From positions 1 to 64,000 of IMG/VR virus record IMGVR_UViG_3300048583_000100: a DNA stretch of 64,000 nucleotides, one strand, 5' to 3'. Each line of letters starts with the position of its first letter. Within the stretch, counting starts at the first letter, position 1. Under the pieces are notes generated by a model, which worked only from the letters and a program-made list of their open reading frames with translations, ran no database searches and had not been told where the DNA came from. Source of the DNA: a virus. Shown here piece by piece: positions 25,414-61,123 of the stretch. The position numbers were made by a program, and so were the translations under genes.

Positions 25414-25809
25414 TTAGTCTTGCTTGCGAAGAACCCATCGCACCCACTCTACCGGATCTTGGTAGGGATGAGCACCGTATGGATTAGATTCGAAGTTCGC
25501 TGGGAACTGCAGGGAATCAAGCAGCCATGCTGAGATAGAGGTTGCCTCTTCGTCAGTTAGCTTCTTGACCGACTCAATCAGATCAGCGTTAGTCGCCATC
25601 TCATACGAGTTAAGTTCGCGAGGCCAGCGATATGGACCGCCACCCTTGAACATTTCGATCAAAGCCGCCATCATGAAATGCTGAACGGGATTCGTGACCT
25701 TGCCGTCGTTTAGGACCTGCTGGAGGGTCATCGTAATGTGAATAGGGATGACGCCTTCTGTGAGGTCGTAATCACCAGCTTTCACGTTCTTGATTTCGTT
25801 GAGTTTCAT
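25414..25809 (-). CDS. putative head-internal protein
   Basis: MKLNEI..LTE-G N-terminus; TATAAATA upstream. Confidence 0.6.
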   Translation of the reverse strand: MKLNEIKNVKAGDYDLTEGVIPIHITMTLQQVLNDGKVTNPVQHFMMAALIEMFKGGGPYRWPRELNSYEMATNADLIESVKKLTDEEATSISAWLLDSLQFPANFESNPYGAHPYQDPVEWVRWVLRKQD

Positions 25810-25852
25810 TGTTGATTCCCTGGGGTTGAATGGTGCTTGTTAAGCACGATGG

Positions 25853-25932
25853 TATTTATAGCGGGCTGCTGGAGTTCATCAGTAAAGAGTCAAGAACTTC
25901 TTGTCGACCCAGGCTCCGTCTGATCATAAATA
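25853..25932. promoter_or_regulatory. divergent late-type promoters (TATAAATA on -, ATAAATA on +)
   Basis: 25853-25860 and 25926-25932, at a strand switch. Confidence 0.65.
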
Positions 25933-25963
25933 CTCGTACTCCTGAACACTTCGGAATCCTATC

Positions 25964-26239
25964 ATGACAGACCAGAACAGAGAACCAATCCCACCACCCG
26001 ATCGTTGGATTGGTCATGGTGCCACTGAGCTAAATCGTAAGGCAGCTGCTGAATGGCAGATGCAATCTGGAGATGGTACCATCAAAAAGATGTCACTATA
26101 CCACCGTGGGTCTGAACGACCTATGCTAGTCACTCTCGCCGGTAAGGTTCATTTCCTTACGCGCTGGGATCAACTCAAATACGCTTTTGGTTTCGAGTCG
26201 CTAGAGTCTCTAAACGAAAAGTACTCCAAGCTACCTTAA
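25964..26239 (+). CDS. hypothetical protein
   Basis: Follows + strand late motif. Confidence 0.55.
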   Translation: MTDQNREPIPPPDRWIGHGATELNRKAAAEWQMQSGDGTIKKMSLYHRGSERPMLVTLAGKVHFLTRWDQLKYAFGFESLESLNEKYSKLP

Positions 26240-26250
26240 AGGACCCAACC

Positions 26251-26679
26251 ATGAAGCTATCTCAAGTCAAGCAGCTGCCAATTCTAAAGGAAGGAATGCC
26301 TTCTTCAATTGATACCTTCGCGCTCGTTAACAGCAAGATGATCAATCGCCTCGCTCAAGATATCGCGGATTACGGGTTTCCAGCAGAATTTGAACTCACG
26401 CTAATCACAAAAGACAAAACCAGAATTGCCGTAAACTTCGCCCTAGAGAAGAAAACGATCAATGATGAAGCGTCCTACCACACCATTACGTTTGAGTATC
26501 AGCGCGATGCTGCGTCTGATAAGAAAATTGCAGCCTACCTTAAGACCCTAGAGAATGCAAAAGACGATCCAGAAGGCGAAAAGTACGACGCTGCGCAGGA
26601 AGAATTGAGCGTTGATAGCATCTACGTCTCTATTGATCTTCGCAAAGAAATTGAGAAGGTCTGGGGCTCTACACAGTAA
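26251..26679 (+). CDS. putative head-internal protein
   Basis: MKLSQV..ILKE-G; SD AAGGA. Confidence 0.6.
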   Translation: MKLSQVKQLPILKEGMPSSIDTFALVNSKMINRLAQDIADYGFPAEFELTLITKDKTRIAVNFALEKKTINDEASYHTITFEYQRDAASDKKIAAYLKTLENAKDDPEGEKYDAAQEELSVDSIYVSIDLRKEIEKVWGSTQ

Positions 26680-27071: not shown

Positions 27072-27299
27072 ATGGAGAAGCAAAAAATTCCAGGCCGAAA
27101 CGAGTGGTACGAATTAACGATTAGCCAGCTGTATGAAACCAAATCTCAGCTGACGACACTCTACTACAACATGCGTGGTGCTGGTGCATCATACGCAAGT
27201 CAGTACCTTGGCTTTATCAACGAGGTTGACGCTTTGATCCAGCGGCGGGAGTTCGAGGCTTTGCAAGCCGAGGCTGCCGAACAGGCGAACGGGCAGTAG
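27072..27299 (+). CDS. hypothetical protein
   Basis: SD AAGGAG; convergent overlap with ClpP. Confidence 0.55.
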   Translation: MEKQKIPGRNEWYELTISQLYETKSQLTTLYYNMRGAGASYASQYLGFINEVDALIQRREFEALQAEAAEQANGQ

Positions 27300-27915
27300 T
27301 AGAGAAATCTACGTTGAAGTCCGGAAGCTCATCAACGATTTGATCGCAGATTCCAAACTTCTTACACTCAGATGGCGTCAGGTATCTATCTGACGCCCCA
27401 AAAAGAATATCATCAATCTGCTTCTCGGTCATAGTAGTATGACGCTTGAAGTGTTGTAGGGTCTGGTGTCTGAGGTACTCATTGGCCTTATGATCTTGAA
27501 TGAGCTCATGATACTTACCATGAGTACCACCTGAGAACTGGTGAGCCATGACGAGTGTGTTCTTGGTTAGAATTCTGCGGCCCTTGGTACCAGCGGCAAA
27601 GATGTAGACGCCCATAGACATTACGCTGCCGAGGCCAACGGTCTTGATTGGCAGCTTGCAAATTTCCATGAGGTCAATTAGAGCGAAGCCATCATAAGCG
27701 TGTCCACCACACGTATTGATGAAGAAGGTTAGTTCCTTGTTGCGAAAGAGCTGACTAGCTTTGAGGAGAAATATGCTTGCTTCCTTGGTCGTCTCTTCAT
27801 CAACATCGCCGAAGAGAACGTGCGCACCTAGAGATTCGATAGAGATGTCGTTAAAGTCAATACGCGTTCCATCGGACGCGGCTTCAATGCCGTAAGATTT
27901 CATATCATGTCCCAT
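27217..27915 (-). CDS. clpP: ClpP-like protease subunit
   Basis: FINTCGG, GSVMSMG (Ser), MAHQ (His), DRYLTPSEC..GICDQI (Asp). Confidence 0.88.
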   Translation of the reverse strand: MGHDMKSYGIEAASDGTRIDFNDISIESLGAHVLFGDVDEETTKEASIFLLKASQLFRNKELTFFINTCGGHAYDGFALIDLMEICKLPIKTVGLGSVMSMGVYIFAAGTKGRRILTKNTLVMAHQFSGGTHGKYHELIQDHKANEYLRHQTLQHFKRHTTMTEKQIDDILFGASDRYLTPSECKKFGICDQIVDELPDFNVDFSTTARSPVRQPRLAKPRTPAAGSKRQPR

Positions 27916-28717: not shown

Positions 28718-28718
28718 T

Positions 28719-29172: not shown

Positions 29173-30306
29173 TTAGCCAACGGTACCTTTCATGACTGTA
29201 AGCTGAATCTGCGTGGGTTTGGCAGAACCTTTTCCTCGTGGGTTTCGGGCTTCAAGCTTAAACTTCATGAAGTCTGATTGCAGGTAAATGTTGATCTGCT
29301 TTCTATTCTTTGAAGGATAGCGAATTTCAGTTACTCTCAACCCGCCAAGAATGACATTGTCGACATACTGTCTGTCAATCTTGATGGCATAGAAGCCACC
29401 TCTCTTCTCGCGCAGGTAATAGTAGTTGGCGCCCCACATCTGCTGCATGATTCTGAAAATAGGGTGATCGTTATCAACAGAGACGCTCCGCGTTTCAATG
29501 TCATTCCATTCCACTTCAGTTTGATCTTTGGCAGCTCGTAGACCCTCTTCAATCTTTTCTGGGCTTAGACCAAATGGTTCAAGCCACGTGCGCCACTCAT
29601 TAGAGCGAGTGTTGACAGAGAGGTCGTCGTTGAACGCTTTCGAGATACCGAACTGTGCGACAGTTCCACCCAATGCATTCTTAACCGACACGTACTTCTT
29701 ACCGCCGACCTTAAGGTGAACCACAATGTCTGCGATGATCTCGCCGGTCTCTTCAGGAGTCAGATTGCCGCTACGCTGAGTCGATCCGCTGCGAGGTGAG
29801 ACTGATACGATGTTGTCGAGCTCGAATAGAGGATCGACTTCTTCTAGAGCCGAGAAAGCAGCTCGAGCCTGATCACCGTCTTCTGCTCCCGACCCAGTAG
29901 CAACGAGGTTGTCCATCTTCAGCAGAAGTTCTTTCTCAAAGCTCTCGCCAGAGTTACCACCAAGAGCGGCAACTACGTCATAGTCGATACCATTGACAGT
30001 GAACGACACAGACGAGTACTTGCCGGAGTTAACAGAGCGATCGTTGATCTGAACATTTGAGATGCCGAGATGCCCACTCTTTGCATTGCGAAGATACTTT
30101 TCAATCTGCAAGAGTAGATCGGCAAGAGGAATGGAACCCTTCACAGTAGGCTTGACACGAATTTGGTAGAACGCCGTTGATCCGTAATTCTGACCGCGAT
30201 TGTTTCTCATCTCGTCAACTGGCAGCCCTGCAAGAATATGCTGGACGAGTGTATCTGCGGTCTGAAGAACTTCTTTTCCAGCTCGCTCGTTTAGTTGTGA
30301 CTTCAC
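29173..30306 (-). CDS. putative PD-(D/E)xK nuclease-like head protein
   Basis: GESFEKEL..IADIV..YVSVK; N-term MKSQLNE. Confidence 0.55.
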   Translation of the reverse strand: MKSQLNERAGKEVLQTADTLVQHILAGLPVDEMRNNRGQNYGSTAFYQIRVKPTVKGSIPLADLLLQIEKYLRNAKSGHLGISNVQINDRSVNSGKYSSVSFTVNGIDYDVVAALGGNSGESFEKELLLKMDNLVATGSGAEDGDQARAAFSALEEVDPLFELDNIVSVSPRSGSTQRSGNLTPEETGEIIADIVVHLKVGGKKYVSVKNALGGTVAQFGISKAFNDDLSVNTRSNEWRTWLEPFGLSPEKIEEGLRAAKDQTEVEWNDIETRSVSVDNDHPIFRIMQQMWGANYYYLREKRGGFYAIKIDRQYVDNVILGGLRVTEIRYPSKNRKQINIYLQSDFMKFKLEARNPRGKGSAKPTQIQLTVMKGTVG

Positions 30307-31982
30307 TTCAGGTTTCCTAGAGCTTCATGCATGCTGTTTAGTTCCTTCAGCATGTCAAAATTGCGGTAAGCTTTGCGCATAAGAGTGATCATCAGCTTGA
30401 TAGCTTCGAGTCTATTTTCTGGCTTAGATACATTGAGACGCTTGAAGAATGCGTCTAGCGTGGCATTGATGACAGGCTCTTGCTTAGCTGCACCAAGAGT
30501 CGACAGACGTCCCTTGGGCAACTCAACGCCAAGAATAGTAGCAAGCTGTTCAAACGAGCGTGCAGTTTCCTTATCGTCTATCTTACCACGAGTCAAAAGA
30601 TCGCGTTCGATAAAGCGAAGGTCAACCGGATTGATCGTCGTACGGTAGTCTTCTCCGCTCATCTCATGCTTAGCAACCGTACCAACGGAGTTGTCCTTGG
30701 TAATGAACTTGGAATGCTTGTGAGTCTGGCGGAAACGCTTGACGATTTTGCTGAGAGTAGAAATCTTCTGACGAGCTTCAGGCTTACCGACATACCCTTC
30801 AGCAGATAGATCGGTCTCACCGAGGTCGTGCATTGTCTCTTTGTAAAGCTTGGACATCTGATCAAACGATGCGCCGACTTGCTTTGACAGACCATCGCTC
30901 ACAAGCTTCTTGAAGAGTTCTTCTTTCTTCATGAGCGCAACGGCTGAATGAGACCAGTGATTGCCAGCAGATTCCATGTCAACATACGGCACTGTAATGC
31001 TTTCGAGCTGATCAACGATCTTCGAAATTGCATCTTCACCCTTGGTGCTAGCTGCAGCAGTGGGATCGACTTCGCCTTGAGTGTTGTACTTCTTAGAGAT
31101 GCGACAAGTGTACGTGCCAGGCTTCAAAATCATCTCAGCTTCGTCACCGTGGTTCTGTCCCGAAGCGGTCCGGTACTTACGCACGTCTAGCAGAATGTCT
31201 TCAGGGTCAGCAAGAGTAGAGATGATGAAGCCTAGAGCTCCGTCAATTGCTTTGCCAGAACGCTGACGATCGAACCACTGCATCATGGCTCCAGTATGGG
31301 ACGATGCTGGACCGAATTTAGCAAACTGTTCTGCGACAGACTTTTCGGTGGTCCAAGAAGAATATCGATCCCATTCGAGATCAACGATTCGAGTGCCTTC
31401 GCGAATAGCTTCGAGGAACTTCAGACCATTACCCTTCTCAAGAGTACCGTCATAACGTTCACGCTCCTCTAGAGAGCTCTCGGAGAACAACAGACCGCGA
31501 TAGAGAAGAGTCGGCTTGCTTGGGCGAATCCCATCAACCGAACCGATTTCTCTAGCTACCCATCCCTTGAGGTCATGGCGATAGCCGTTCGTGTTTACGA
31601 AGTCGTCAATATCTTTGCGAGCATCACGCGAGAGGGTACCTTTGGATACACTCGTATGTTCCTTGAACAGGTTGCTGACGAAGTCTTTTAGCTTGTCGAA
31701 TTCGCGAGCAGTCAGATCTGGCCCACGAAGCTTACGAAGCCCCGAGAGCGTAGCCAGATCGATGTCTTTGACGTAGTCACGTGTCTTGACGAAAGCTTTT
31801 ACGCTCTCGTTGTTGAGGAGCCAGTATTTGACAGTAGCCAGAAAAGCTTCTGGATCTGTAACGTCCGCAAGAGTTGAAGCCTGTTTGAATAGGGGATCAA
31901 TTCGCTTATCCTTCTTCATTGACTTCTTTAGGTCAACGAGATTGAGTGTGCTTGCTTCTTGAAGTAGACGGATAAGCTGCAT
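30303..31982 (-). CDS. ADP-ribosyltransferase (R-S-E class, Alt-like), putatively packaged
   Basis: LLYRGL, YSSWTT, DEAEMIL; MQLIRLLQE-A; late motif 32017-32023. Confidence 0.7.
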   Translation of the reverse strand: MQLIRLLQEASTLNLVDLKKSMKKDKRIDPLFKQASTLADVTDPEAFLATVKYWLLNNESVKAFVKTRDYVKDIDLATLSGLRKLRGPDLTAREFDKLKDFVSNLFKEHTSVSKGTLSRDARKDIDDFVNTNGYRHDLKGWVAREIGSVDGIRPSKPTLLYRGLLFSESSLEERERYDGTLEKGNGLKFLEAIREGTRIVDLEWDRYSSWTTEKSVAEQFAKFGPASSHTGAMMQWFDRQRSGKAIDGALGFIISTLADPEDILLDVRKYRTASGQNHGDEAEMILKPGTYTCRISKKYNTQGEVDPTAAASTKGEDAISKIVDQLESITVPYVDMESAGNHWSHSAVALMKKEELFKKLVSDGLSKQVGASFDQMSKLYKETMHDLGETDLSAEGYVGKPEARQKISTLSKIVKRFRQTHKHSKFITKDNSVGTVAKHEMSGEDYRTTINPVDLRFIERDLLTRGKIDDKETARSFEQLATILGVELPKGRLSTLGAAKQEPVINATLDAFFKRLNVSKPENRLEAIKLMITLMRKAYRNFDMLKELNSMHEALGNLK

Positions 31983-32039
31983 TTTGGGAGCTCTTACAGT
32001 AGGGCTTGAGATGCTCTATTTATCGCCCGTCGTACCAGC

Positions 32040-32492
32040 TTACTCGTAAATCCAGAGGGTTCGGGCTACGTCGGGATATGGTTCGAATGCCGTGTCGATG
32101 ATCTCGGAGATGACTGCCCAATTACCGCCACCTAGTCCTGCACCGATCATTGGATAATGCACCTCGATATCTAGCTGGCTAGCTGCTTCGGCGATCGCAA
32201 TGAACGTCTGCTGAATTGCGGGGTAGCTGACGTACTTGACTTTGTCGCGACCATAATGCCACTGCGTGATTGCATTGGCGATTACCAGAGTGTCCGTGAT
32301 CTCCGAAAGAACAACCTGACCTAGCTCAAGTCCGCCCTGAGTGTATGCGTCTGCATAATCGGCGAAGGCTTTGGGATACTTGGCTCTAACCGCTTTAGCA
32401 AGACCACTACCCATTACGCCCTGGGCATTGCACCCATGGACGATGATTCCATTTGTTGCATCGAGGACGTCCCCGAATTTAATCCGCTTCAT
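32040..32492 (-). CDS. macrodomain ADP-ribose hydrolase
   Basis: GDVLDA, HGCNAQGVMGSGLA, PMIGAGLGGG. Confidence 0.9.
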   Translation of the reverse strand: MKRIKFGDVLDATNGIIVHGCNAQGVMGSGLAKAVRAKYPKAFADYADAYTQGGLELGQVVLSEITDTLVIANAITQWHYGRDKVKYVSYPAIQQTFIAIAEAASQLDIEVHYPMIGAGLGGGNWAVISEIIDTAFEPYPDVARTLWIYE

Positions 32493-44861: not shown

Positions 44862-44905
44862 ATTGTATCACAGGGCAGGTCTTCCGTAAACTGAAGCCAT
44901 AAATA
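44862..44905. promoter_or_regulatory. back-to-back early promoter (-, 44862-44891) and late promoter (+, 44899-44905)
   Basis: GTTTAC-N18-TACAAT on - and ATAAATA on +. Confidence 0.7.
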
Positions 44906-44927: not shown

Positions 44928-45326
44928 ATGACCATTCTTCAAGATTTGCTGACTCTTCGCGAAGCAGAAGACCTCAACCCAGACGTGCCAAAGGCAGTTA
45001 ACGCTATCAAGCGCAAACTGAAGGAACCGTTCGGTAGAGAGCAGGTTAAGATTACGCTGACTCCGTCAGGTAACAAGATTGTCATCCTCCTCGAATTCAA
45101 CCGCACGCTGACTGAAAAGGAATTCGACTACGCTGTCGATGACCTCAAGGACGCAATCGAAAAGGCCGACGAGTCTGGTCGATGGGAATTCAAGGACACT
45201 GGATCGTACTTCGCTGATCCAGCTGCTCTCATGCCCAAGCGTGGCGTGATGATGGATCAAGGTGCGTTGCTTTGCGATATCGAATACACCGTTACCGTCC
45301 CAAATACGATTCGCAAGAAGCGCTAA
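44928..45326 (+). CDS. putative head-internal protein
   Basis: SD AGGAGG; MTILQDLLTLRE-A. Confidence 0.6.
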   Translation: MTILQDLLTLREAEDLNPDVPKAVNAIKRKLKEPFGREQVKITLTPSGNKIVILLEFNRTLTEKEFDYAVDDLKDAIEKADESGRWEFKDTGSYFADPAALMPKRGVMMDQGALLCDIEYTVTVPNTIRKKR

Positions 45327-45362
45327 CGCGCAGCTATAGTCCTTCAAACTTCGGCGCCCAAA

Positions 45363-46376
45363 ATGTTTACCTTCAAACAGTTCATCAGCGAGTCTACACT
45401 CCACGTGTTTGACATCGACGACACCCTATTCAAGACGTCTGCTAAGGTAGTCGTTAAGAAGGGCGGCAAAATCGTTCGCTCGCTGTCTTCGTCTGAATAC
45501 AACAAGGACAAGCTGAAGGACGGAGAAGTCTACGACTTCGATGAGTTCCGTTCTGCTAGGAAGTTCAAGGACGAGTCAGAGCCAATGCAGGACATGCTCG
45601 ATACCGTCAATCGTATCCACAACAAGATCAAGATGAACCTTACTCCTGGTTCCAAGATCATCATGAACACCGCTCGTAGCGATTTCGATGAGCGTGATAC
45701 GTTCCTTGGTAAGTTCAGAGATCACAAAGTGGACATCGACGATATCCACGTTCATCGTGCTGGCAATGTCAAGGGCGATCAACCTACTGCAGCCAAGAAG
45801 CTCGTATTCATCCGTGGCTACTTGAAGTCTGGCAAGTACAGCAACGTCATGATGTACGATGACAGCGAAAAGAATCTAGACCATTTCCTCGGTCTTCGCG
45901 AAGAGTTCCCAGACGTAAAATTCCACGCCTACCTTGTCAAGCACACCGGTAAGCTAGTGCAGTACAACTCAGCTGAGAAGGTTACCGAGGATGATGCCGA
46001 GCTGAAAGAAAAGTATCAGCGTTGGAAGAAGCTCGTCAACATGCCATCGCCTACACTCCAGAAGTTCATTGACTCGGACACTGGCAAAGATGCCGGCCTG
46101 TCTAGACAGGAAGCTTCGTCTTTGGGGATTAAGAGTGGGCGCGATTCAGCCCGTGCTATCCTAAGAATGCGCGCAAAGCCATTCTCCGAGTGGACAGCAG
46201 ATGACATCAAGTGGATGAATCGCCAAATCTCATTCGTAAGTCGAATGACTGGCAACCAAGGCCCGATGTTCCAGATGAAAGATGGAAAGAAGGTTCCTAC
46301 TCGTAAGCTTACGAGTCTCTGGATTTGGGGTAACGTGCCAGCGGGTCATTCACCTGGCACGTACCGCATCTTTTAA
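45363..46376 (+). CDS. HAD phosphatase fused to a DUF3140-like domain, with capsid-targeting-like N-terminus
   Basis: MFTFKQFISE; FDIDDTL, NTAR, YDDSEKNL; C-term LVNM..SGRDSARAI..WTADD..SLWIWG. Confidence 0.7.
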   Translation: MFTFKQFISESTLHVFDIDDTLFKTSAKVVVKKGGKIVRSLSSSEYNKDKLKDGEVYDFDEFRSARKFKDESEPMQDMLDTVNRIHNKIKMNLTPGSKIIMNTARSDFDERDTFLGKFRDHKVDIDDIHVHRAGNVKGDQPTAAKKLVFIRGYLKSGKYSNVMMYDDSEKNLDHFLGLREEFPDVKFHAYLVKHTGKLVQYNSAEKVTEDDAELKEKYQRWKKLVNMPSPTLQKFIDSDTGKDAGLSRQEASSLGIKSGRDSARAILRMRAKPFSEWTADDIKWMNRQISFVSRMTGNQGPMFQMKDGKKVPTRKLTSLWIWGNVPAGHSPGTYRIF

Positions 46377-46921: not shown

Positions 46922-47064
46922 CAGCTATTCCTGAACCACGCTCGGACGTTGCTGAACAGATTGTACTTGACGATGTCGTGCCAGGCAACTACGCCAATGC
47001 AAACGACGATCGAGAACAGCCCATACCCAACGATGGCGTACATTGCAGCTTCTTCATTACTCAT
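46921..47064 (-). CDS. small membrane protein (47 aa, not in ORF track)
   Basis: MSNEEAAMYAIVGYGLFSIVVCIGVVAW...; SD TAGGAG; early promoter 47090-47119. Confidence 0.55.
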   Translation of the reverse strand: MSNEEAAMYAIVGYGLFSIVVCIGVVAWHDIVKYNLFSNVRAWFRNS

Positions 47065-47121
47065 CTGATTTCTCCTAATCACTTAGGTCATTATACACCA
47101 CGGTGAATCAGACGTACACTG

Positions 47122-47616
47122 TCAACCTGCGAGTCGCTCCATGTCTCCGAGTTCAAGAAGCTGCTTGATGTAGAGACAGGCGTCCATCACTGCGCCCTCA
47201 CCACCCTTGTTAGGTGTCACGAAATTTGCAGCCTTGATAGCTTCAATTCGCGCATTCGCGGGTGCGATACCAATTGCGCAAGTCTTGATGCATGGCGCAT
47301 CGTAGTAGCCGTCGCCCATGAAAATGGTTTCGCGTGGATTCATCTGATGAATGAATTCAAGTCTGTCTTCTTCGGGTATAAACGTCAGCTCATATCCCAT
47401 GTCTGCACAAATTCTGCGATGTGTAATCTCGTAGCCTCTCTTATCGGCAGAGATAAACTGAATTCGAAGACGATTGCGAAGCATCTTCAATCCATCTGCA
47501 TCATGCGGGCCAAACACCTTCGCTAGCTTGCCAGCAGCAGTGTAAATGAACTGCCCGTTAGTCATGACACCATCGACATCAAGGATGAAGTTTTTCAGAT
47601 CTGCGGTTCTAAACAT
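47122..47616 (-). CDS. KdsC/YrbI-like HAD sugar-phosphate phosphatase
   Basis: LDVDGVMTNG, FGPHDADG, MGDGYYD, GGEGAV. Confidence 0.85.
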   Translation of the reverse strand: MFRTADLKNFILDVDGVMTNGQFIYTAAGKLAKVFGPHDADGLKMLRNRLRIQFISADKRGYEITHRRICADMGYELTFIPEEDRLEFIHQMNPRETIFMGDGYYDAPCIKTCAIGIAPANARIEAIKAANFVTPNKGGEGAVMDACLYIKQLLELGDMERLAG

Positions 47617-49126
47617 TGGTGTTGACCTTGTGGTTGAGTCGTTCGAGAGCCAGACAGAATAGTAGCTTATCGAGTGGAGCATTGTGGAGAGGAGCCATGT
47701 TCAGGAAAATCAGCGTGACCATATCGTCAATGATCGGGCTTGGGAGCATGTGCTTGAATTTTTCGCGGAAGGCAATGAACTCTGGACGGCTTTCGAATCC
47801 AAACGAGCACGAGTCTCCGTCTTCAGACACCCAGAATTTGTGTTCGCGAATGTAATCGTAGTTGACTATCATGCCACCTACCAGCTTCGCAGCATCATAA
47901 TAGAGATCGCCGACTTTGATCTGCCCACCGAAATCCTGTCTCCAGTCGATGAGCGTAAACTTCTCACCATCGTAGATGACGTTGTCGAACTGAAGATCAC
48001 CATGGAAGAACACCGAACGAGTCTTCAGATCGGTGTTGAGCATTGCATTCCAATCGATGTGATGCTGAATGCCATTGTCGATGTCGACTTTTAGCACTCG
48101 CCCGTTGATGATCTTTGGATTGAATGTCGGGTACTTGTCTCGGAAAACCTGTAGACGACGCATCGTCTTGTCGTAGTAGAATTTGCGGCACAGCTCAGGA
48201 GTAAGCGTCTTGCTCTCATCCATCTGCCATACTTCGAATGCCATCCACTCCAAGAATTTCGTAAAGGTTTCGGCAGTTAGCGACTTGTAGAGCACATCAC
48301 CTGGCACAAAGTGATACGAGTACCATGGCCCACGGTGTTCAATGATCTTTGGAAAGAGATGCTCTCTGCCTTCGATTCGAGCAAGACGATTCATCGTGTT
48401 AGCTGGATTGCGGAACCACTTGATGACTCGATTGTTGACGATGTAGAGGAACTCGTCTGACTTGCTGTTGTCAAATGGTGAAGTCTCCTTAGAAAACTTC
48501 TCATAGCGCTCGTAGGTGCCAAGATCAACCCAAGGAAGCTCGATTGAATGTACCTCATTAGCAGTCCAACCGCTGGCGAGCTCGATACCGTTCAGACCGT
48601 TCCAAAAATGCTTTGTGTCCTTGATGTAGAAAACACCAGAGACAGCAATTCCAGAATCGAAATGCTGCTTGTCAACCACCGTGTCGATGCGCGTACCGTC
48701 TAGAGCTACGTTGCAGTACGCAGGAGAATCCATTGGATCAATGCGAGCAGTCGCTACATAGTTCTTATCTTCGGGAATGTCATTGAGCCCCTCGTAGTAT
48801 CCATCACAAGCGATCAGATAGAAGGGCCCGTCGATATGCGCACCTGCGGCGAGCAATGATTGGGCTGGACCAGCACCCGGCCCATCAAAGTTTTCGACGT
48901 ACGAGTAAAGGAAATTCCGTTCTGGGTGGGCGAGCGATAGATAGTCGCGAACTTGGTCGTGCTTGTACCCCACAGCAACCACGAACTTCGTGTCTTGGGG
49001 AAATTGCTCGATGATGTGCGAAATGATTGCCTTGCCTCGAATGGGAAGCAGCGTCTTGTTGATGACGGTACTGTACTTTCCCATTCGCGATCCCGTTCCT
49101 GCTGTGAGGAGGACCACTGTTTTCAT
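47609..49126 (-). CDS. sugar-phosphate nucleotidyltransferase fused to APH/choline-kinase-like domain
   Basis: LTAGTGSRM..NKTLLP, WVDLGT; HGDLQFDNV, LIDWR, YYDAAKL. Confidence 0.85.
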   Translation of the reverse strand: MKTVVLLTAGTGSRMGKYSTVINKTLLPIRGKAIISHIIEQFPQDTKFVVAVGYKHDQVRDYLSLAHPERNFLYSYVENFDGPGAGPAQSLLAAGAHIDGPFYLIACDGYYEGLNDIPEDKNYVATARIDPMDSPAYCNVALDGTRIDTVVDKQHFDSGIAVSGVFYIKDTKHFWNGLNGIELASGWTANEVHSIELPWVDLGTYERYEKFSKETSPFDNSKSDEFLYIVNNRVIKWFRNPANTMNRLARIEGREHLFPKIIEHRGPWYSYHFVPGDVLYKSLTAETFTKFLEWMAFEVWQMDESKTLTPELCRKFYYDKTMRRLQVFRDKYPTFNPKIINGRVLKVDIDNGIQHHIDWNAMLNTDLKTRSVFFHGDLQFDNVIYDGEKFTLIDWRQDFGGQIKVGDLYYDAAKLVGGMIVNYDYIREHKFWVSEDGDSCSFGFESRPEFIAFREKFKHMLPSPIIDDMVTLIFLNMAPLHNAPLDKLLFCLALERLNHKVNTNV

Positions 49127-49193
49127 TTGATGACCTGATAAGATGCCCATGGTATGCAAGTATTTACCTCAAGCTCTACCAGACCCCGCGCAC

Positions 49194-49222
49194 AAAAAAG
49201 CCTGAGCTTCGGACTCAGGCTT
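49194..49222 (-). terminator. intrinsic terminator
   Basis: AAGCCTGAG/CTCAGGCTT stem with U6 on - strand. Confidence 0.8.
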
Positions 49223-49258
49223 CCTCGTGATGGTGCCTACTCCATCTAGCGCAGAGGG

Positions 49259-49639
49259 TTACAGGGCTTCAGCGATCTTGGCAGCCAGCTTGGCCTGGTC
49301 CTTGAAGTTGGAAGCACCCGGGATGCCGTAGGCTTCGCCAGTCAGCACCAGCTTCGGCAGGTTGCGCGGGGACAGGGCGGGACCGTTGCCGGCCTTCACG
49401 CTCGCCAGCCAGACCGGACCGAACTTGAAGCCACGGGGACCAGCAGTGCGGACGGCGCCAGCCTTGCGGACGCGGAGAGCGGCAGCCGACTTCGGCTTGG
49501 ACTTCGCCTTGGTGCCGAGATCGGCAGCCTTGATCGCAGCTTCCGCTTTGGCCTTGTTGTCGAAGCCCTTGCGGAGCGGCAGACCAGCCAGCTTGGCGAG
49601 GACGTTGTAACGGGTGACCAGATCATTCATCGTGCTCAT
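49259..49639 (-). CDS. basic Ala/Lys-rich protein, paralog of 50598-51068
   Basis: SD AAGGAG; FKFGPVWLASV motif. Confidence 0.7.
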   Translation of the reverse strand: MSTMNDLVTRYNVLAKLAGLPLRKGFDNKAKAEAAIKAADLGTKAKSKPKSAAALRVRKAGAVRTAGPRGFKFGPVWLASVKAGNGPALSPRNLPKLVLTGEAYGIPGASNFKDQAKLAAKIAEAL

Positions 49640-49667
49640 TTGAAACTCCTTCATCAGTGGGATTGGT

Positions 49668-49919
49668 TTATGAGAGAACAGTACCGCAACATCTGCAGAC
49701 ACGTGGAGCGGGTATTACGACGGGACGGACAGCATGATTGAGGCTGGTGATTCGGAACCAGCGGGTTCCAAGATGTTTCTGGCGCTTTTTGACTTCCACC
49801 ATCGCCACGGCCTTGAGGTTGTCAACCATGACGACTTCGCCGGTGTGACCCATCAGACCTTCACCTTGGCTGACAATCTGGACGAAGTCACCGATTCGAA
49901 TGGGCTCTTGTGCGTTCAT
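49668..49919 (-). CDS. KOW-like small protein
   Basis: IRIGDFVQIV..GHTGEV. Confidence 0.5.
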   Translation of the reverse strand: MNAQEPIRIGDFVQIVSQGEGLMGHTGEVVMVDNLKAVAMVEVKKRQKHLGTRWFRITSLNHAVRPVVIPAPRVCRCCGTVLS

Positions 49920-50245
49920 TCCAGCCCCAGCAACTTCCGATCTTCAGCAGTCAGCTTGGCAAGGGCAGCTCGACGGGCTTGACTCTCTATGCCATTCCAG
50001 AACTGCTCCGCGGTCTGGTAGATGTGGAGGTTGATCTCTGCGACGGCGCTGTGCTCGCTGCCGGGGCGGTGGATACCTTGGACGCAGTAGCGTGCGAATC
50101 GCGGATCATCAACGACCTTGAGCGCCTCTTCCTTGGAGTTCATGTATGCCATGGTCACCATCGGCCCACGACCTTCATTGGTGTCAGCGTTGCGATTGAT
50201 GGAGAACACTTTGATCGGATTGGTCATGTCAGTAGCCTCGTTCAT
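49916..50245 (-). CDS. hypothetical protein
   Basis: DTNEGRG; C-term ALAKLTAEDRKLLGL common in phage early proteins. Confidence 0.6.
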   Translation of the reverse strand: MNEATDMTNPIKVFSINRNADTNEGRGPMVTMAYMNSKEEALKVVDDPRFARYCVQGIHRPGSEHSAVAEINLHIYQTAEQFWNGIESQARRAALAKLTAEDRKLLGLE

Positions 50246-50532
50246 GCGTAGAGCCAGCCATCTTTCTGTGCACCTTCGATGGCGTCCTTGATGTTCTTGC
50301 CGTAGCTCGACCAGAAACCGAGACCGTTGGCATACCAAACCACGATCTGGTTGGGAGCTTGTCGGTGGCCCTTGCCGAGATACATGAACGTCTTGCCTTC
50401 TTCGCCGAAGTTCTTGACCACGTAGAACGTTTCGAAGTCAGCCACGTGGTCCATTCCCTTGGGAAGGTCCGACTTGTAGATGCTTCGTACGAAGAGGGTG
50501 TGGCCCGAAGCTACGCTGATGGTCTTTTTCAC
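50242..50532 (-). CDS. hypothetical protein
   Basis: SD AAGGAG with GTG start. Confidence 0.55.
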   Translation of the reverse strand: MKKTISVASGHTLFVRSIYKSDLPKGMDHVADFETFYVVKNFGEEGKTFMYLGKGHRQAPNQIVVWYANGLGFWSSYGKNIKDAIEGAQKDGWLYA

Positions 50533-50597
50533 GAGAGGCTCCTTAAAGATGTCCAGGCCGGTCTTTCGACCTGGACACAATCGCTGCGGGGAGAAGA

Positions 50598-51068
50598 TCA
50601 GAAGGTGGCAGCGATCTTGCTGCAGAGGTCCTTGATGTCCAGCTTCTCAGGAGCCTTGATGCCGGCCAGGAGGGCCTGGTGGTTGAGCTTCTCGCGGTTG
50701 GCTTCGGCGGTAGCGATGCCCTTACCCTTGGTCACCGAGGCGTTCCAGATGGGACCGAAGGAGAAGCGGACGCCGTTGGCGGCAGCAACCTTGATGCGGA
50801 CACCCTTGGGGCTGGACTTGATCTTGAGCTTCTTCTCGGCGGCAGGAGCGGCCATGTCGGCGACCAGCGCGGTGAGGGGAGCATCACCTTCAGCTTCGAC
50901 CATCGCAGCAGCTTCCTTGACCATGCGGACGAACTGCATGTTGTCCAGGGAGACCACGAAGTTGTTCACGAGCGGGAACTTCTGGGCAATCCGACGGAGC
51001 TTGTCCATCGCGATCGGATTGGATTCGTCCAGGGCAAGACCGGTGATTTTCGAGATTTCCTTGATCAT
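50598..51068 (-). CDS. basic Ala/Lys-rich protein, first full gene after repeat array 1
   Basis: SD AAGGA; FSFGPIWNASV motif. Confidence 0.7.
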   Translation of the reverse strand: MIKEISKITGLALDESNPIAMDKLRRIAQKFPLVNNFVVSLDNMQFVRMVKEAAAMVEAEGDAPLTALVADMAAPAAEKKLKIKSSPKGVRIKVAAANGVRFSFGPIWNASVTKGKGIATAEANREKLNHQALLAGIKAPEKLDIKDLCSKIAATF

Positions 51069-51130
51069 CTGAGTATTTCCTTCGTCAGTAGTAGGGTTGA
51101 TCAGATTTCGTTTCGTCCGATCATGTAGCT

Positions 51131-51159
51131 ATTATACACTAACCTGCGGAGATGTACAC
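51131..51159 (-). promoter_or_regulatory. variant early promoter GTGTAC-N17-TATAAT
   Basis: Directly downstream of array 1. Confidence 0.75.
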
Positions 51160-51183
51160 AGTTTTGTTCGGTTATTTTCACTT

Positions 51184-51331
51184 CTAAGTGATTGATCCGT
51201 ATAGGCTTTCTGGAGCGTATCCCTAAGTGATTGATCCGTAAAGGAAACTATTTTCAGTTAGTTTCACTCCCTAAGTGATTGATCCGTATAGGCTTTCTGG
51301 AGTGCTTCCCTAAGTGATTGATCCGTATAGG
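51184..51331. repeat. array 1: four copies of CTAAGTGATTGATCCGTAWAGG
   Basis: Copies start at 51184, 51223, 51271, 51310 (87-bp higher-order unit). Confidence 0.95.
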
Positions 51332-51410
51332 CTTTCTGTAGGCTAGAAACCGTGACCCCAGAGGTCCCCTGGGTCTGGGTGCACCCAGAGAACCTATGTG
51401 ATAGTCTATC

Positions 51411-51785
51411 TTAGGGTTCTACAACCGTGCACCCAGAGGGGAGTCCGAGACCGAAGCTGTCAGGTCCTAGGATTTCGTATCCGCGGACAGGAGCCGCAGC
51501 GGTCCTGAGCAGCTGGTATCCAAGGATGAGCTCGGCGTCTAGAAGACCCTGCCCAATCTGCTCGAGGTATTTCTGGTTGCCCTCGCGAGCAACGATGATC
51601 TTGTTGCTGTGAGCATGGTCGCTCTTGGCAATCTGGATGTCGCCACCTTGGTGCTCGATCATCAGAATGTAGAGCTCTTCAACGTGTACGGTCATGTCGG
51701 GTCCTTTCATCATTGCGCCACAGTTAGCACAGGGGCCGCGGTGACGGATTATGTTTCCACAGCCAGGGCATCCAGGCTCGCTCAT
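51411..51785 (-). CDS. hypothetical protein with N-terminal CxxC..CxxC
   Basis: ATGA coupling. Confidence 0.5.
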   Translation of the reverse strand: MSEPGCPGCGNIIRHRGPCANCGAMMKGPDMTVHVEELYILMIEHQGGDIQIAKSDHAHSNKIIVAREGNQKYLEQIGQGLLDAELILGYQLLRTAAAPVRGYEILGPDSFGLGLPSGCTVVEP

Positions 51786-52129
51786 ATAGATAGCTCGTAG
51801 TTGGGGTTGCCGAGGTTTTCCAGAGCAGCCTTCCGTTCCTTCTTGGTCCACCTTCTGCCCCAGGCATTCCAGTACGTGCCGAAATGCGGGTTGTACTTTG
51901 CAGCCCACCGCTTAAGGACGCGTAGGGAGTCCATTCGAACGTATCGACCCTTTCGAATGGTGCCCTTGTAGTCAGAGAGCACGAGCTCATCCGGCTGGTA
52001 GACACTCACGTGAGAGCCGCCACAGACAACAACGAGGCGACCATCAGGAAGGATGCGCCAGATTCGGCCGTAAAGAATCCAGCCGTCAGCTTGCTCCTTC
52101 TTGGAGAAGACGATGTCGTTACGCTTCAT
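51782..52129 (-). CDS. hypothetical protein
   Basis: SD GGAG. Confidence 0.6.
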   Translation of the reverse strand: MKRNDIVFSKKEQADGWILYGRIWRILPDGRLVVVCGGSHVSVYQPDELVLSDYKGTIRKGRYVRMDSLRVLKRWAAKYNPHFGTYWNAWGRRWTKKERKAALENLGNPNYELSI

Positions 52130-57598: not shown

Positions 57599-57730
57599 GC
57601 TATACGGATCAATCACTTAGGGATCATCAAACCGAAAGCCTTTAGAAATCAATCACTTAGATAGCGAAAATAGTTTTCGTATACGGATCAATCACTTAGG
57701 GACTTATCTATACGGATCAATCACTTAGGG
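57599..57730. repeat. array 3: four copies of the ATCAATCACTTAG core
   Basis: Cores end at 57620, 57660, 57699, 57728. Confidence 0.95.
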
Positions 57731-57745
57731 CAGTGCTATTCCTTA

Positions 57746-58768
57746 TTATAGCAGCTTGGCGATCTCGGCTGACTTAGCTCGTAGCATGTCCTGGGTCTCG
57801 GCTGCTTTCTGCTTGGCTCGGTCGGTCTGGGCCTTGTCAAATTTGCTGCTCTTGGCCAAGTCCTCATTCTTCTTGATGTACGTTTCGCGGACCTTGGAAA
57901 GGAAATCCTCTTGCGAAGAGATGTGCTTGAGCAGTCCCTTACTGTACATGTCGTTGAGTGCGAAGGATTCTCCAAGACCCTTGATTGCTGATGCGAGATC
58001 GGCAATCTTGATTTCGGATTTCGTAATACCCGGGTGCGCTGCTAGACCCTTGCTGATCTTGACCTTACCTTCTCCATCTCTTTCGTGGAAAGCTTTCAGG
58101 ATATCAGTTGCGAAGGTGTCGATGCTTGTAGACAGGGTGCGAAGTTTGTCGGCCTTTAAGGTGCGGAAGCTCACCACTTCACCGCCCTTCTCTTTCATCT
58201 GTACACCCGAGTCGCCAATGCTGAGATTGAGAACTTCTGCGAGTGATGAGTAAAGGAAGCCGATGAGTGCACCCTTGACACCGTGTTCAGGAGTCATGCG
58301 ATGCGAAGTCCAATCTTCGAGGTCAGTGAATGACTTGACGAGATCGATCTGAACAGCCTGATCACCGACCTGGAATACAAGAGCCGCACCCTTGAAGGAT
58401 GTGCCAGCAGCCAGATATGAAAGATCGTTGTCGTCTATGTACTCGTCAAGCTCTTCACGATAGAGACGCCAGTTGTCTGAGCCTTTCATTCCCTCAATAC
58501 GAGGAACGATGAACATCACATCGATGTCACCGTACTCTTTGTCTGGGTTAGACTTGAGATCGCGTTCGATGTATGCAGAGGAACCGACTGGCTTACCAAA
58601 TGCGACAGGCGCAAGGTTCTTCTTTGCAAGATGAGCATTGAAGTCCTTCTCGAATCTAGGAAGCAGTGCGAGTGCCTTCTTAGCAAGAGCCGGAGTCAGA
58701 ATAACGTCTTGCGTAAGGGTGCTAGACCAGCCACCCTCAGCTAGGAACTCTTTGAATGATCGCTTCAC
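57746..58768 (-). CDS. Pol-beta-superfamily nucleotidyltransferase with capsid-targeting-like N-terminus
   Basis: MKRSFKEFLAE-G; VGSS..YGDIDV..QIDL. Confidence 0.7.
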   Translation of the reverse strand: MKRSFKEFLAEGGWSSTLTQDVILTPALAKKALALLPRFEKDFNAHLAKKNLAPVAFGKPVGSSAYIERDLKSNPDKEYGDIDVMFIVPRIEGMKGSDNWRLYREELDEYIDDNDLSYLAAGTSFKGAALVFQVGDQAVQIDLVKSFTDLEDWTSHRMTPEHGVKGALIGFLYSSLAEVLNLSIGDSGVQMKEKGGEVVSFRTLKADKLRTLSTSIDTFATDILKAFHERDGEGKVKISKGLAAHPGITKSEIKIADLASAIKGLGESFALNDMYSKGLLKHISSQEDFLSKVRETYIKKNEDLAKSSKFDKAQTDRAKQKAAETQDMLRAKSAEIAKLL

Positions 58769-59583
58769 GTTACATACCTAAAATTCGGAGAGCGAGAACC
58801 ATTCCTGCCCGTACCTAAACTATTTACGAGGTGCTTTACCGATTCGAAGATAGTGACACCGTCTACAGTGCAAGCCCTTTTGTTCTTTGACATATCCTTT
58901 GACTTGCGCATGTTCTGCTTTGCTTCTTCAGAATGCTTCTTACCAAGTCGGACCTGTCGAATTGATTCTTTGTGAGCCGTAGAAAATGTCGGTAAGACTT
59001 TCGACTTTCCTTTTGTGGCTTTTGAAATATTGTGACGTGTTTCGGGAGTTCTGGTTTGTCCAGTGCCACCCTCAGAAATCTTCTTCTTGTGTTCTTCAGT
59101 TAGCACTTTACCCGTCAGCGCATTTCGAATTTTTTCACGAGCTTCAGGGGTATGCGTAGTCCAGGTTTTTGCTCTAGAAGCGGCTATCTTGTCGTACCAC
59201 TCTTTTGTGCGAACATATTTCTTGGACGCTGCTGAAAGCTTTGCACTTGTTTCTGCTTTTGTCGGTGGGCGATCATAGTAGCCTTCTCCACCGGGCCCAC
59301 AATTCATGCAAGCGGGATCTTTTCTAAGCTCAACAGTAATGAGCTCTTTTTCTTTATCTGATGCTTCTTGTCGAGAAGAAAATTCGAATAGCACCTGAGA
59401 TACATGCCTGTCTTTACCGTATTTTCTGATGGACTTTCTCAGTCGCATACCGCTGCCCAAATAACCATCATTCAAGTTATCAGTGCTGTGCATCCCGATA
59501 TAAAAGGCACCTGTTTCAATGCAAACTGTCTTATAGACAATATGGTGCTTTCTATTTGACGCTCTAACGTACTTCTTTTCCAT
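58765..59583 (-). mobile_element. Seg-like GIY-YIG homing endonuclease with NUMOD3-like repeats
   Basis: IVYKTV..FYIGMHST..YLGSG; HTPEAREKI, LTEEHKKKIS, HSEEAKQNM repeats; AT-richer than neighbours; TATAAATA 59610-59617. Confidence 0.85.
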
Positions 59584-59635
59584 TTGATACTCTCAAGGCT
59601 AGCTGAGAATATTTATAGAAATCGGCAAAATCAGG

Positions 59636-61123
59636 TCATGCATACAACTCCACGAGTTTTTCCCAATTTGGAGCTCCTGATGCAGCAAGGTTAAGAGCAC
59701 GTACGAGCTTACGAAGGGATACGTCACCCTTACGCTTAGAGGTCTTGACGACCTTCAGAACATTCTCACGCTCATCCTTCGAAAGGGTCATGTCGCCTTC
59801 GAGACGGATGTCATGCAGGATTCTTTCCATGTGCTCGAACATTTCGTCGTCGGTTGGATCGACGTTGATGACGAATGCACGGGTACGAAGAGCTCCGTCT
59901 GGGTCAAGCTTCGAAAGCGGAAGGTTCGAGATGAAGATGATGCGACCCTTAAAGTCGAAGTACTTAGGAGCCATGGTGGCATCGTCTTCGTACTGCTCTG
60001 GGTCTTCACTCTCTGGGTCGAAGATGAACGAGGAGCGCTTGTTCCAAACCATTTTACGGCTCTTCTTAGTGTCGGTGGCAGCCTTGATGAGGTTGCGAGC
60101 GTCGACGTCAGCAAGAGCTCCGTCCGAGTCATCGAACAGAATGATGTCGTTGCGGTGGTGATAGAGCAGCGTGTAGACACCTGCAGCAGAAGCCGAACCG
60201 GTGTTCTTGAAGTAGCCATCGCCGTCAGTAAGACCATTAGCCTCGAGCACACGCTCAACAGTCTGAGTCTTACCAGTACCACCCTTACCAGCTACGAAGA
60301 GAGCGTTAAACGATCCCTTGATGACAGCTTGGACAAGACCCGCAAGGTGATCTAGGGTCTCGAGATATGGAGTGCGCTCGGCACCAGCCTTATCCTTACC
60401 TTCGATCTCCTCTTCCTGAGAAGACTTGAAGTAGGTTTCCTTTGTGCCACCAGCAGTCACCTCGACAACGCCAGCCTTAGAAAGGATAGAGTCCTTGAGT
60501 GACTCGATCTTTGCATCAGGGTCCAGCGTGACTCGCTTACCGTTGATGCCGAACTGTTCCTTGAACTTGTCGTAGATGGTATCGAAGACACCGGCATGGA
60601 CGATGTGGTAACGACCGATGAAGTCAGAACGAGTCATCGACTTGCCGCTCTTCAGCTGGCCGAGGAAGTCAACGAGTGCAGTTTCAGCTGTAAAGTCGTC
60701 GCGCTTTGCTTCAGTGACGATCGACTCATTCATGGCCTCTGTAGCAGAGACTGGGAATGCGAACTCCTTACCAACAGATGGGTTCTCAAGCTTCGAAACT
60801 ACGAGTGGTAGAATCTGTACGAGGGAGACGCCCTTAGAACGAATGGAGTAGTTTGGATCGTGCGACTTACCGGTGAAAATGTCGATCGATGCAAGCGAAC
60901 CTGGTTTTCCGACTGCACCTTCGCTCGCCCAATTGAATCGAACGCAGCGAGTTGAACCCGACTGAACGTAGCGAACACCGTAGCCGCTACCTTCAGAGTT
61001 CTTGAAGTGTTCGATGCCTGGGATTCGGATGAACTTGACACCCAACTTCTTCTCAATGTACGAGATCATGGTTGGAAGAGCTAGACCGGTGGCCTTAGCT
61101 TCGTGCAGCTGACTTAGTTTCAT
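59636..61123 (-). CDS. AAA+-like ATPase with N-terminal extension, paralog of 53610-54584, putatively packaged
   Basis: MKLSQLHE-A; GKGGTGKT, ILFDDSD, IIFISN, ALRTR, VSLR; late motif 61159-61165. Confidence 0.82.
   Translation of the reverse strand: MKLSQLHEAKATGLALPTMISYIEKKLGVKFIRIPGIEHFKNSEGSGYGVRYVQSGSTRCVRFNWASEGAVGKPGSLASIDIFTGKSHDPNYSIRSKGVSLVQILPLVVSKLENPSVGKEFAFPVSATEAMNESIVTEAKRDDFTAETALVDFLGQLKSGKSMTRSDFIGRYHIVHAGVFDTIYDKFKEQFGINGKRVTLDPDAKIESLKDSILSKAGVVEVTAGGTKETYFKSSQEEEIEGKDKAGAERTPYLETLDHLAGLVQAVIKGSFNALFVAGKGGTGKTQTVERVLEANGLTDGDGYFKNTGSASAAGVYTLLYHHRNDIILFDDSDGALADVDARNLIKAATDTKKSRKMVWNKRSSFIFDPESEDPEQYEDDATMAPKYFDFKGRIIFISNLPLSKLDPDGALRTRAFVINVDPTDDEMFEHMERILHDIRLEGDMTLSKDERENVLKVVKTSKRKGDVSLRKLVRALNLAASGAPNWEKLVELYA

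Follow-up and report, generated by a model that had tools for sequence, protein, structure and literature searches.

Proteins that a phage delivers along with its DNA are at work before the first of its genes is expressed, deciding the first minutes of the infection, including escape from host defenses, and their detection normally requires mass spectrometry of cultured phages. Several systems of this kind have been described. The capsid targeting sequence of phage T4 is MKTYQEFIAE (PMC8442874), and T4 packages and injects the ADP-ribosyltransferase (ART) Alt after the protease gp21 has removed its propeptide (PMC9026906, PMC9958956). As read from the T4 N-termini, the known cuts share [L/I]-x-Glu (IAE-10 in the internal proteins, LRE-10 in gp24, and LIE-9 in gp21), with the propeptide lengths behind these sites taken from the literature (PMC9026906, PMC9958956). 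The head proteins of phiKZ, 201phi2-1, and SPN3US carry propeptides, for which the cleavage sites of the gp21-related proteases are (S/A/G)-x-E or A-x-E (PMC5694885). For myoviruses, virion-packaged ART, Macro, NADAR, and Nudix proteins were predicted from MuF/portal fusions and gene neighborhood (Iyer et al. 2022, PMC9503650). That T4-like phages load varied proteins via the capsid targeting sequence is an existing idea (PMC3012670, PMC9026906); our literature search found no paper surveying such leaders in uncultured jumbo phages. Here, we describe a 64-kb stretch of viral DNA, hereafter the window, which is the first 64 kb of the 97,427-bp IMG/VR contig IMGVR_UViG_3300048583_000100. On this contig, a short N-terminal tag, predicted to be of the T4 capsid-targeting style, is present on at least 15 otherwise unrelated, predicted late proteins, several of which are enzymes.

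The contig carries genes for a T4-type DNA polymerase, topoisomerase II subunits, RNA ligase, PhoH, and thymidylate synthase. CheckV places its completeness at 27%, corresponding to a full genome of about 360 kb, and the contig is part of the genome of an uncultured jumbo phage of that size in the T4 superfamily. The nearest cultured phages, the Xanthomonas phages X1, BUDD, and XacN1, are distant, with an X1 polymerase identity of 27%. Searching cultured-phage DNA with positions 44000-51900 of the window returned trivial 58-bp matches alone, and tblastn of the ART and the nucleotidyltransferase (NTase) described below against 50,697 phage records gave zero matches. Closer relatives exist among uncultured phages. 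Four large ones were searched, with polymerase identities of 62-70%, and three of these four genomes are complete, with terminal repeats and lengths of 343-368 kb. The three complete relatives, including one referred to as G001, were analyzed as whole genomes, and the head module was detailed in G001 alone.

Eight of the leader genes lie inside the window, and leader length is 7-18 residues. There are two interchangeable leader types: x-T/S-F-K-Q/E-F-L/I-x-E, which is the T4 internal-protein type, and MK(L/V)-x-(E/Q/D)-L-(L/F)-E. The eight open reading frames (ORFs) and N-termini that a preliminary description of this DNA had singled out were all recovered in place. Two of them, at 30306 and 58768, have GTG starts, and the leading M there is a read-through of V. 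The window genes are as follows, with a slash marking the predicted cut and the product names being predictions:

25414..25809, minus strand: 131-aa protein; leader MKLNEIKNVKAGDYDLTE/GVIP (18 aa); matrix score 8.4, above the 99th percentile
26251..26679, plus strand: 142-aa protein; leader MKLSQVKQLPILKE/GMPS (14 aa); matrix score 6.8, above the 99th percentile
29173..30306, minus strand: 377-aa protein, candidate restriction-endonuclease-like nuclease; short leader (GTG)KSQLNE/RAG
30303..31982, minus strand: ART-fold protein, 559 aa; leader MQLIRLLQE/AS (9 aa)
44928..45326, plus strand: 132-aa protein; leader MTILQDLLTLRE/AE (12 aa)
45363..46376, plus strand: HAD-type phosphatase/DUF3140 fusion, 337 aa; leader MFTFKQFISE/S (10 aa), T4 internal-protein type; score 19.1
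57746..58768, minus strand: Pol-beta-fold NTase, 340 aa; leader (GTG)KRSFKEFLAE/GGW (11 aa)
59636..61123, minus strand: P-loop (AAA-like) ATPase with an extra N-terminal domain, 495 aa; leader MKLSQLHE/AK (8 aa)

Outside the window, the contig carries leader genes at:

73250-74359
74356-74553
74554-75435
91498-92031
92187-92642, a NUDIX hydrolase
92648-93094
94920-95318

How the leader is defined proved decisive for its statistics. The loose [L/I]xE definition with which the preliminary description had worked does not rise above chance: [LIV]xE occurs within the first 22 residues of 39 of the 151 ORFs, against 30 expected. When a small residue is also demanded after the Glu, 20 ORFs are observed and 10.4 expected (151 ORFs, internal-window control). 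Position-specific tests gave a clearer picture. The strict motif [FY][KQ][EQTD]F[ILV][AST]E, generalized from the T4 capsid targeting sequence alone, has three matches in a six-frame scan of the 97-kb contig, each of them 2-4 residues past the start codon in an ORF that encodes 290 aa or more. The same scan of G001 returned four matches, all N-terminal, so that each of the seven matches in the two sequences follows the start of a long ORF by 2-5 residues.

We then scored N-termini with a two-anchor matrix trained on 76 distinct leaders, taken solely from out-of-window homologues of one family in other metagenomes. Relative to internal control windows, 12 of the contig's 151 N-termini exceeded the 99th percentile, where 1.5 would be expected, and seven exceeded the 99.9th, where 0.15 would be expected. 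Every one of the 12 is a leader candidate. Seven of the eight leader genes of the window are among them; the eighth, at 44928, is backed by its homologues. Applied to 100 kb of the T4 genome with 967 candidate starts, the matrix ranked IPIII first, IPII second, and IPI fourth, which indicates that the metagenomic leader and the experimentally defined signal of T4 are the same kind of sequence. The third-best T4 score fell on an internal in-frame start of uvsW (T4 coordinate 114210, plus strand), with a 76-aa product opening MLLEFKQFLYE/AS; T4 gp2 (MAIFQIINE/STP) scored 11.1, just below threshold.

Synonymous codons vary among the leaders (Leu CTC/CTA/CTT/CTG; Ser TCT/AGT/TCA), and the leader is therefore conserved as a peptide, not as DNA. 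In an all-against-all BLAST of the 15 leader proteins, the sole paralogy, besides the leaders themselves, was that between two NTases, which excludes duplication of a shared N-terminal domain as the cause of the pattern. A separate observation concerns the start context. CCCAA stands immediately 5' of the start codon in four leader genes, replacing a clear Shine-Dalgarno (GGACCCAACC, GCTCCCAAA, GCGCCCAAA, GCTCCCAA), and precedes the start in just 1 of about 95 other ORFs of at least 80 aa. It may be the remnant of a common 5' cassette or a special start context.

26239-26250, 31983-31996, 45349-45362, 61124-61135: CCCAA start contexts of the four leader genes

ATAAATA is the core of the T4 late promoter TATAAATA, which is of the gp55 type. 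The window holds 12 copies of it against 2.3 expected, a count that none of 100 shuffles reached, and 11 of these copies precede a start on the same strand by 18-55 nt. The copies near the leader genes are given here together with one shorter match:

25853..25859, minus strand: ATAAATA, 44 nt upstream of 25414-25809
25926..25932, plus strand: ATAAATA, heads the pair 25964-26239 (first gene) and 26251-26679 (second gene)
32017..32023, minus strand: ATAAATA, 35 nt upstream of the ART gene; heads the pair of ART and 377-aa protein
44899..44905, plus strand: ATAAATA, 23 nt upstream of 44928; heads the 44928 and 45363 pair
58821..58826, minus strand: TAAATA (short of the heptamer), 53 nt upstream of the NTase start, within the 3' end of the homing-endonuclease gene
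59610-59616, minus strand: ATAAATA, precedes the homing-endonuclease gene
61159..61165, minus strand: ATAAATA, 36 nt upstream of the ATPase gene

The motif stands directly upstream of 8 of the 15 leader genes, compared with 12 of 136 other ORFs (Fisher p = 8e-5), an association for which the preliminary description had suggested looking. The remaining leader genes are mostly second genes of ATAAATA-headed units. The further claim of that description, that every one of the eight window genes lies downstream of a late motif, directly or via an operon, also holds, the nearest motif at 58768 being TAAATA only. Orthologues in the relatives preserve the leader and ATAAATA together. From these motifs, we infer that the leader genes are probably transcribed late.

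A removable leader should be recognizable by its junction with the mature protein, and three cargo families are informative in this respect: the leader varies, yet [L/I]-x-E precedes the conserved mature start. For the NTase at 57746-58768, 91 metagenomic homologues were available, in which the mature part opens with an invariant GGW. The residue before it (P1) is Glu in 82 of 83; P3 is Leu in 64, Ile in 16, Val in two, and Met in one (n = 83), that is, Leu or Ile in 80 of 83; and 16 different residues occur at P2. The leader measures 8-13 residues in 80 of the 83, and the distance from junction to start ranges from 7 to 41. Both the TFKQFLxE and the MKLxxLxE type of leader occur among its members, in an identical position. 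A Met immediately follows the Glu in four homologues (E-M-GGW), and two others open with MGGW, which fits a leader added ahead of an older start.

Similar junctions appear in the other families. The 377-aa protein has 74 homologues, 53 of which show an [L/I/V]-x-E/[R/K]-A-P junction, with Leu (37), Ile (10), or Val (4) at P3 in 51 of 51; their leaders span 7-17 residues, mostly 8-12. This conserved junction rescues MKSQLNE at 30306, the weakest leader of the window. Across the 70 sequences of the ART family, E9 is invariant, as are just 18 other columns, L7 is kept in 69, and A10 and S11 in 65. The four representatives found for the 132-aa family (44928) carry differing leaders of both types (MIILQDLLSLTE/AA, MKLDEMKLLE/AAE, VSLKSFIAE/SE, and MKLFEV...). 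In the three complete relatives, orthologues of a second NTase (74554-75435) keep FL(A/T)E/G, and those of the NUDIX protein keep [V/I/L]-x-E/[R/K]AGFIPY. AlphaFold models agree with a loose N-terminus. The leader is their least confident part, with a mean predicted local distance difference test (pLDDT) of the first ten residues of 37 for the NTase (whole model 93, residues 1-12 below 50) and 56 for the ART (whole model 89.8), and values of at least 85 begin at residue 21 and residue 11, respectively. The leader is thus predicted to be unstructured or unpacked, in line with a detachable peptide.

The protease that would cut these leaders was sought on the contig and in the relatives. A Peptidase_S77 search of the 97-kb contig, which is 27% complete, gave no match, and the head module is absent from this fragment. 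The ClpP-family protease at 27217-27915 (minus strand; Pfam CLP_protease, E 1.4e-30), which lies 76 nt downstream of a TAAATA and near two leader genes, was rejected as the head protease, as it belongs to a family different from the gp21 type. All four relatives searched have a Peptidase_S77 (T4 gp21) match above the Pfam cut-off (E 1e-24 to 3e-26), and three of the four have a gp55-like late sigma factor gene. The head module of G001 comprises portal, protease, and gp23-type major capsid protein in T4-like order. Genes beside and between these head genes open with MELLQELL..., MKLEQLRKLSGLAE/A, MKIKELVE/K, MQLLRELHAINE/A, MKFKEFLTE/K, and MRFKEFITE/G, the last belonging to a basic protein of 146 aa, like the T4 internal proteins. 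The G001 protease itself opens MKQQILIE/H, and T4 gp21 opens MNEPQLLIE/T. When the strict threshold is applied, the complete relatives have 16-19 leader ORFs each, and these are scattered genome-wide.

The matrix shows no leader enrichment in Xanthomonas phage X1. In the tail/head region of X1, two small proteins begin with MTFEDFLYE/A (45202-45666) and MTFDEYLAE/Q (48831-49076), which resemble the T4 MKTYQEFIAE, and an internal-protein-type leader therefore exists in this cultured 200-kb phage too.

Taken as T4-type capsid-targeting and gp21-cleavage signals, which is how the preliminary description had read them, the leaders are strongly supported by comparative evidence. The matrix recovers the T4 internal proteins, the junctions recur in three families, the relatives encode a gp21-type protease, and head-module proteins of G001 bear leaders. 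The full reading goes further: late genes would carry these leaders so that the virus holds cargo enzymes in its head and ejects them with the DNA, and we give it a probability of roughly 75%. The genes would be transcribed late from gp55-type ATAAATA promoters, alongside the head genes; the leader would dock the protein on the prohead scaffolding core; a gp21-type prohead protease would cleave after [L/I]-x-Glu, freeing the mature protein inside the shell; and the protein would be retained in the DNA-filled head and ejected with the DNA, acting before any phage gene is expressed, in analogy with T4 Alt and the internal proteins. Sequence signals for late synthesis, docking, and cleavage are present, and from the T4 precedent we would expect docking, cleavage, head retention, ejection, and roles in the host to follow. 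The predicted cargo consists of the R-S-ExE ART and the candidate restriction-like nuclease, two paralogous Pol-beta-fold NTases, the HAD/DUF3140 protein, the NUDIX hydrolase, the P-loop ATPase, and several small proteins.

Several points weigh against this reading. The head module and protease are missing from the contig, and that step rests on relatives with polymerase identities of 62-70%. The support consists of sequence comparison and predicted structures, and virion presence, cleavage, and injection are argued by T4 analogy. The gp21 substrates gp22, gp67, and gp68 are degraded in T4, so a leader alone does not show ejection. As first defined, with or without the small residue, the loose motif is at or near chance, and position-specific tests were used instead; among these, the strict regular expression was composed after viewing the sequences, a bias that the matrix test avoids. 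In the ART family, residues 13-27, right behind the leader, are conserved too, and N-terminal conservation alone is accordingly no proof of a removable ART peptide. Some leaders are weak or atypical, namely MKSQLNE/R at 30306 and MKLSEVSG... at 74553, the latter without a clear Glu site. Finally, gene calls were naive (longest ORF), which makes genome-wide counts approximate.

The strongest competing explanation accepts targeting and cleavage and departs from ejection: leaders would bring proteins to the prohead core and be cut there, but the proteins would act in the prohead or head, in assembly or in the condensation, modification, or protection of DNA, stay in the capsid, or be degraded. 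Several T4 gp21 substrates are indeed scaffold parts that are destroyed (PMC9958956), and many G001 leader genes lie in the head module, some encoding K/E-rich, scaffold-like products. Since a leader does not guarantee ejection in T4, this explanation keeps some weight. However, the cargo proteins here are folded enzymes (ART, NTases, HAD, NUDIX, ATPase), each with one site at its N-terminus, like T4 Alt and the internal proteins and unlike multiply-cut scaffold proteins. The leader genes are also scattered and differ among relatives, as T4 internal-protein genes do, and T4 does inject its 682-aa ART, Alt (PMC9026906). We regard retention or degradation in the head as rather improbable overall.

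Less probable still, and by our estimate quite unlikely, is an N-terminus unrelated to the capsid, either an amphipathic helix serving localization to a membrane or compartment, oligomerization, or regulated degradation, or a by-product of translation starts on late mRNA. Starts of the MK... kind are favored for translation in many genomes, and with CCCAA before the ATG of four leader genes, the similarity could partly reside in the mRNA. Yet it is the amino-acid sequence that is conserved, the codons being varied, and the Glu at the junction is fixed though its distance to the start varies from 7 to 41 residues. The junction motif, moreover, matches the specificity of the protease family that the lineage encodes; the matrix finds the experimentally proven capsid targeting sequences of T4; and head-module proteins bear the leader. 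Chance, by which a low-information [L/I]xE in eight of about 100 genes would be meaningless, can draw on the loose motif (39 against 30) but is refuted by the matrix counts (7 against 0.15, 12 against 1.5), by the confinement of the T4-type heptad to N-termini in six-frame scans, and by the junction statistics of three families with 51-83 informative homologues each.

The cargo proteins were then considered one by one. In the model of the 559-aa protein, residues ~116-307 gave 13 best VIA-align matches that are all ARTs (C3bot2, Vis, VIP2, C2-I, ExoS, and others), with Z scores of 6.0-6.8, which are moderate given a 'clear' level of 8 for this tool, and 101-141 residues aligned at a root-mean-square deviation of 3.1-4.1. 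Whole-model Foldseek returned weak rows alone, and VIA-align was required. Across 70 homologues, Y161-R162-G163, S208-S209-W210, and E281-x-E283 are either invariant or conserved to 90% or more, so that the earlier call of an ADP-ribosyltransferase is supported by the modeled fold and the invariant R / S-S / E-x-E. None of the 70 family members matched a Pfam ART model, and hhalign against T4 Alt gave a probability of 0.6%. The candidate Alt orthologue was therefore rejected and the protein filed as an ART-fold enzyme, not as a member of the Alt family. PDB sequence searches with single sequences and profiles of the ART, both NTases, the 377-aa protein, and the ATPase returned nothing significant.

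The start of the 377-aa gene overlaps the stop of the ART gene by 4 nt. For its product, the nearest named Atlas language-model clusters are the HaeIII, MspI, and HinP1I endonucleases, at 0.89-0.90, which is below the reliable level, and E124, D193, S207, and K209 (D ... S-x-K) are invariant in the family. Pfam, PDB, and PADLOC searches of this protein gave no match. The PD-(D/E)xK-like nuclease of the preliminary description was thus not confirmed and stands as a lead, drawn from the language-model neighbors and the invariant D ... S-x-K. Many ART and 377-aa homologues sit on contigs of matching sizes (e.g., 4852, 17223, 25850, 285248, 290571, and 338660 bp), and the two genes may therefore form a conserved module with both members leader-bearing. 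Immediately upstream of the ART gene and its late promoter lies a gene for a Macro-domain protein without a leader (32040-32492, minus strand; Pfam PF01661, 33.7 bits). By analogy with ART/hydrolase toxin-immunity pairs, this protein might reverse ADP-ribosylation in the producing cell. In G001, the Macro orthologue is present and the ART absent. Elsewhere on the contig, the 369-aa leader protein at 73250-74359 (minus strand; MKLRELFE/S) has a match to PHROG 12810 from residue 1 (E 7.7e-8) and an acidic stretch right behind the leader; it was ruled out as a second ART (hhalign probability 0.6%).

The NTase model found Pol beta, Pol X, Pol lambda, and the CD-NTases CdnC and CdnE in Foldseek (E 1e-4 to 1e-3, probability 1.00), and G62, S63, D81, D83, and D142 are invariant in 77 sequences. 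The proposed nucleotidyltransferase identity agrees with this predicted Pol-beta fold and with the invariant GS / DxD / D; no Pfam family matched the protein. The leader gene at 74554-75435 encodes its paralogue (hhalign 95.6%). Next to the NTase gene lies a homing-endonuclease-like gene (58765-59583, minus strand; Pfam NUMOD3; N-terminus MEKKYVRASNRKHHIVYK...), the stop of which overlaps the GTG start of the NTase.

For the product of 45363-46376, the HAD phosphatase/DUF3140 fusion put forward earlier finds sequence support. It has the HAD motif I DIDDT at residues 17-21, a match to PHROG 415 'polynucleotide kinase' at residues 9-175 (E 1.3e-7), and DUF3140 at residues 221-302 with 37.1 bits in Pfam (cut-off 25); Pfam DUF2608 fell below the cut-off. 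The G001 orthologue is a 208-aa protein without DUF3140 and with the leader MKLHEV.... The ATPase contains a Walker A (GKGGTGKT) and a Walker B (IILFDDSD) and matches PHROG 1250 (E 1e-32). Its Pfam AAA_16 match, at 24 bits and E 6.4e-5, is below the cut-off of 32.6, and we grade the AAA ATPase assignment of the preliminary description as plausible on its Walker motifs. Orthologues open MKLLNLFE/RD in G001 and MKLQDLFE/AR in G003, a further relative, and both have an upstream ATAAATA.

The small leader proteins at 25414, 26251, and 44928 could not be assigned a function from Pfam and PHROG searches. For the first, Atlas was searched as well and was uninformative, with no match in Pfam, PHROG, or Atlas; its orthologues in G001 and a further relative, G002, retain L-x-E/GVIP and the upstream ATAAATA. 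The G001 orthologue of the 26251-26679 protein opens MSRSLLKIINE/SITG. PADLOC returned no match for the ten leader proteins searched.

In an uncultured phage with a genome of about 360 kb, the leader flags what is probably the cargo of the head. This cargo would include enzyme classes that are not known as T4 packaged proteins, namely Pol-beta-fold NTases, a HAD phosphatase, a P-loop ATPase, and possibly a nuclease, as well as an ART family that is unrecognized by any sequence library. Should the leader rule prove valid, metagenomic sequence could be used to read injected proteomes, and the families of cargo proteins would be candidates for anti-defense or takeover functions; the leaders could also be used as packaging tags in T4-based delivery vectors. 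A bolder and more doubtful extension is that the leader is a freely exchangeable 'address label' that can recruit almost any enzyme, allowing fast cargo swaps in a first-strike kit that works before transcription. Were this true, the ART would be accompanied by a restriction-like nuclease sparing the phage's own modified DNA, the NTases, NUDIX hydrolase, and HAD phosphatase would destroy or mimic nucleotide signals of host defense, and leader detection would become a general sequence-only readout of the injected proteome for uncultured T4-superfamily phages.

Compared with the myovirus prediction (PMC9503650), the present case shares the predicted delivery of ARTs and Nudix proteins from phage heads, and ART, Macro, and NUDIX genes all occur on this contig. 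Unlike in that prediction, the evidence here is a targeting leader that is predicted to be cleavable, and which the Macro protein lacks. The predicted likeness to phiKZ, 201phi2-1, and SPN3US is that of giant phages with many head proteins in which a homologous protease cuts after Glu, their ejection proteins being inferred; their propeptides are mostly longer than 100 residues with a small P3, whereas those described here are short with Leu or Ile at P3. With T4 Alt, the ART shares the fold, the R / S / ExE signature, and a short leader ending in [L/I]-x-E (MELITELFDE in Alt, MQLIRLLQE/AS here). It differs in having no detectable sequence relationship, in its size of 559 aa, in the large helical domains at both its N- and C-terminus, and in being paired with the 377-aa leader protein beside a Macro-domain gene. 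What the present case contributes is the list of cargo proteins, junction statistics family by family, and a cross-validation of the leader matrix on T4. Closest of all are the T4 internal proteins, with their leader of about ten residues (T-F/Y-K/Q-E/Q-F-I/L-x-E), late genes (late by promoter motif here), and a gp21-type protease in the lineage. T4 has three internal proteins and Alt, whereas the tag described here, known from sequence, is found on at least 15 genes in 97 kb, marks large enzymes besides small basic proteins, and comes in two leader types that interchange within single families.

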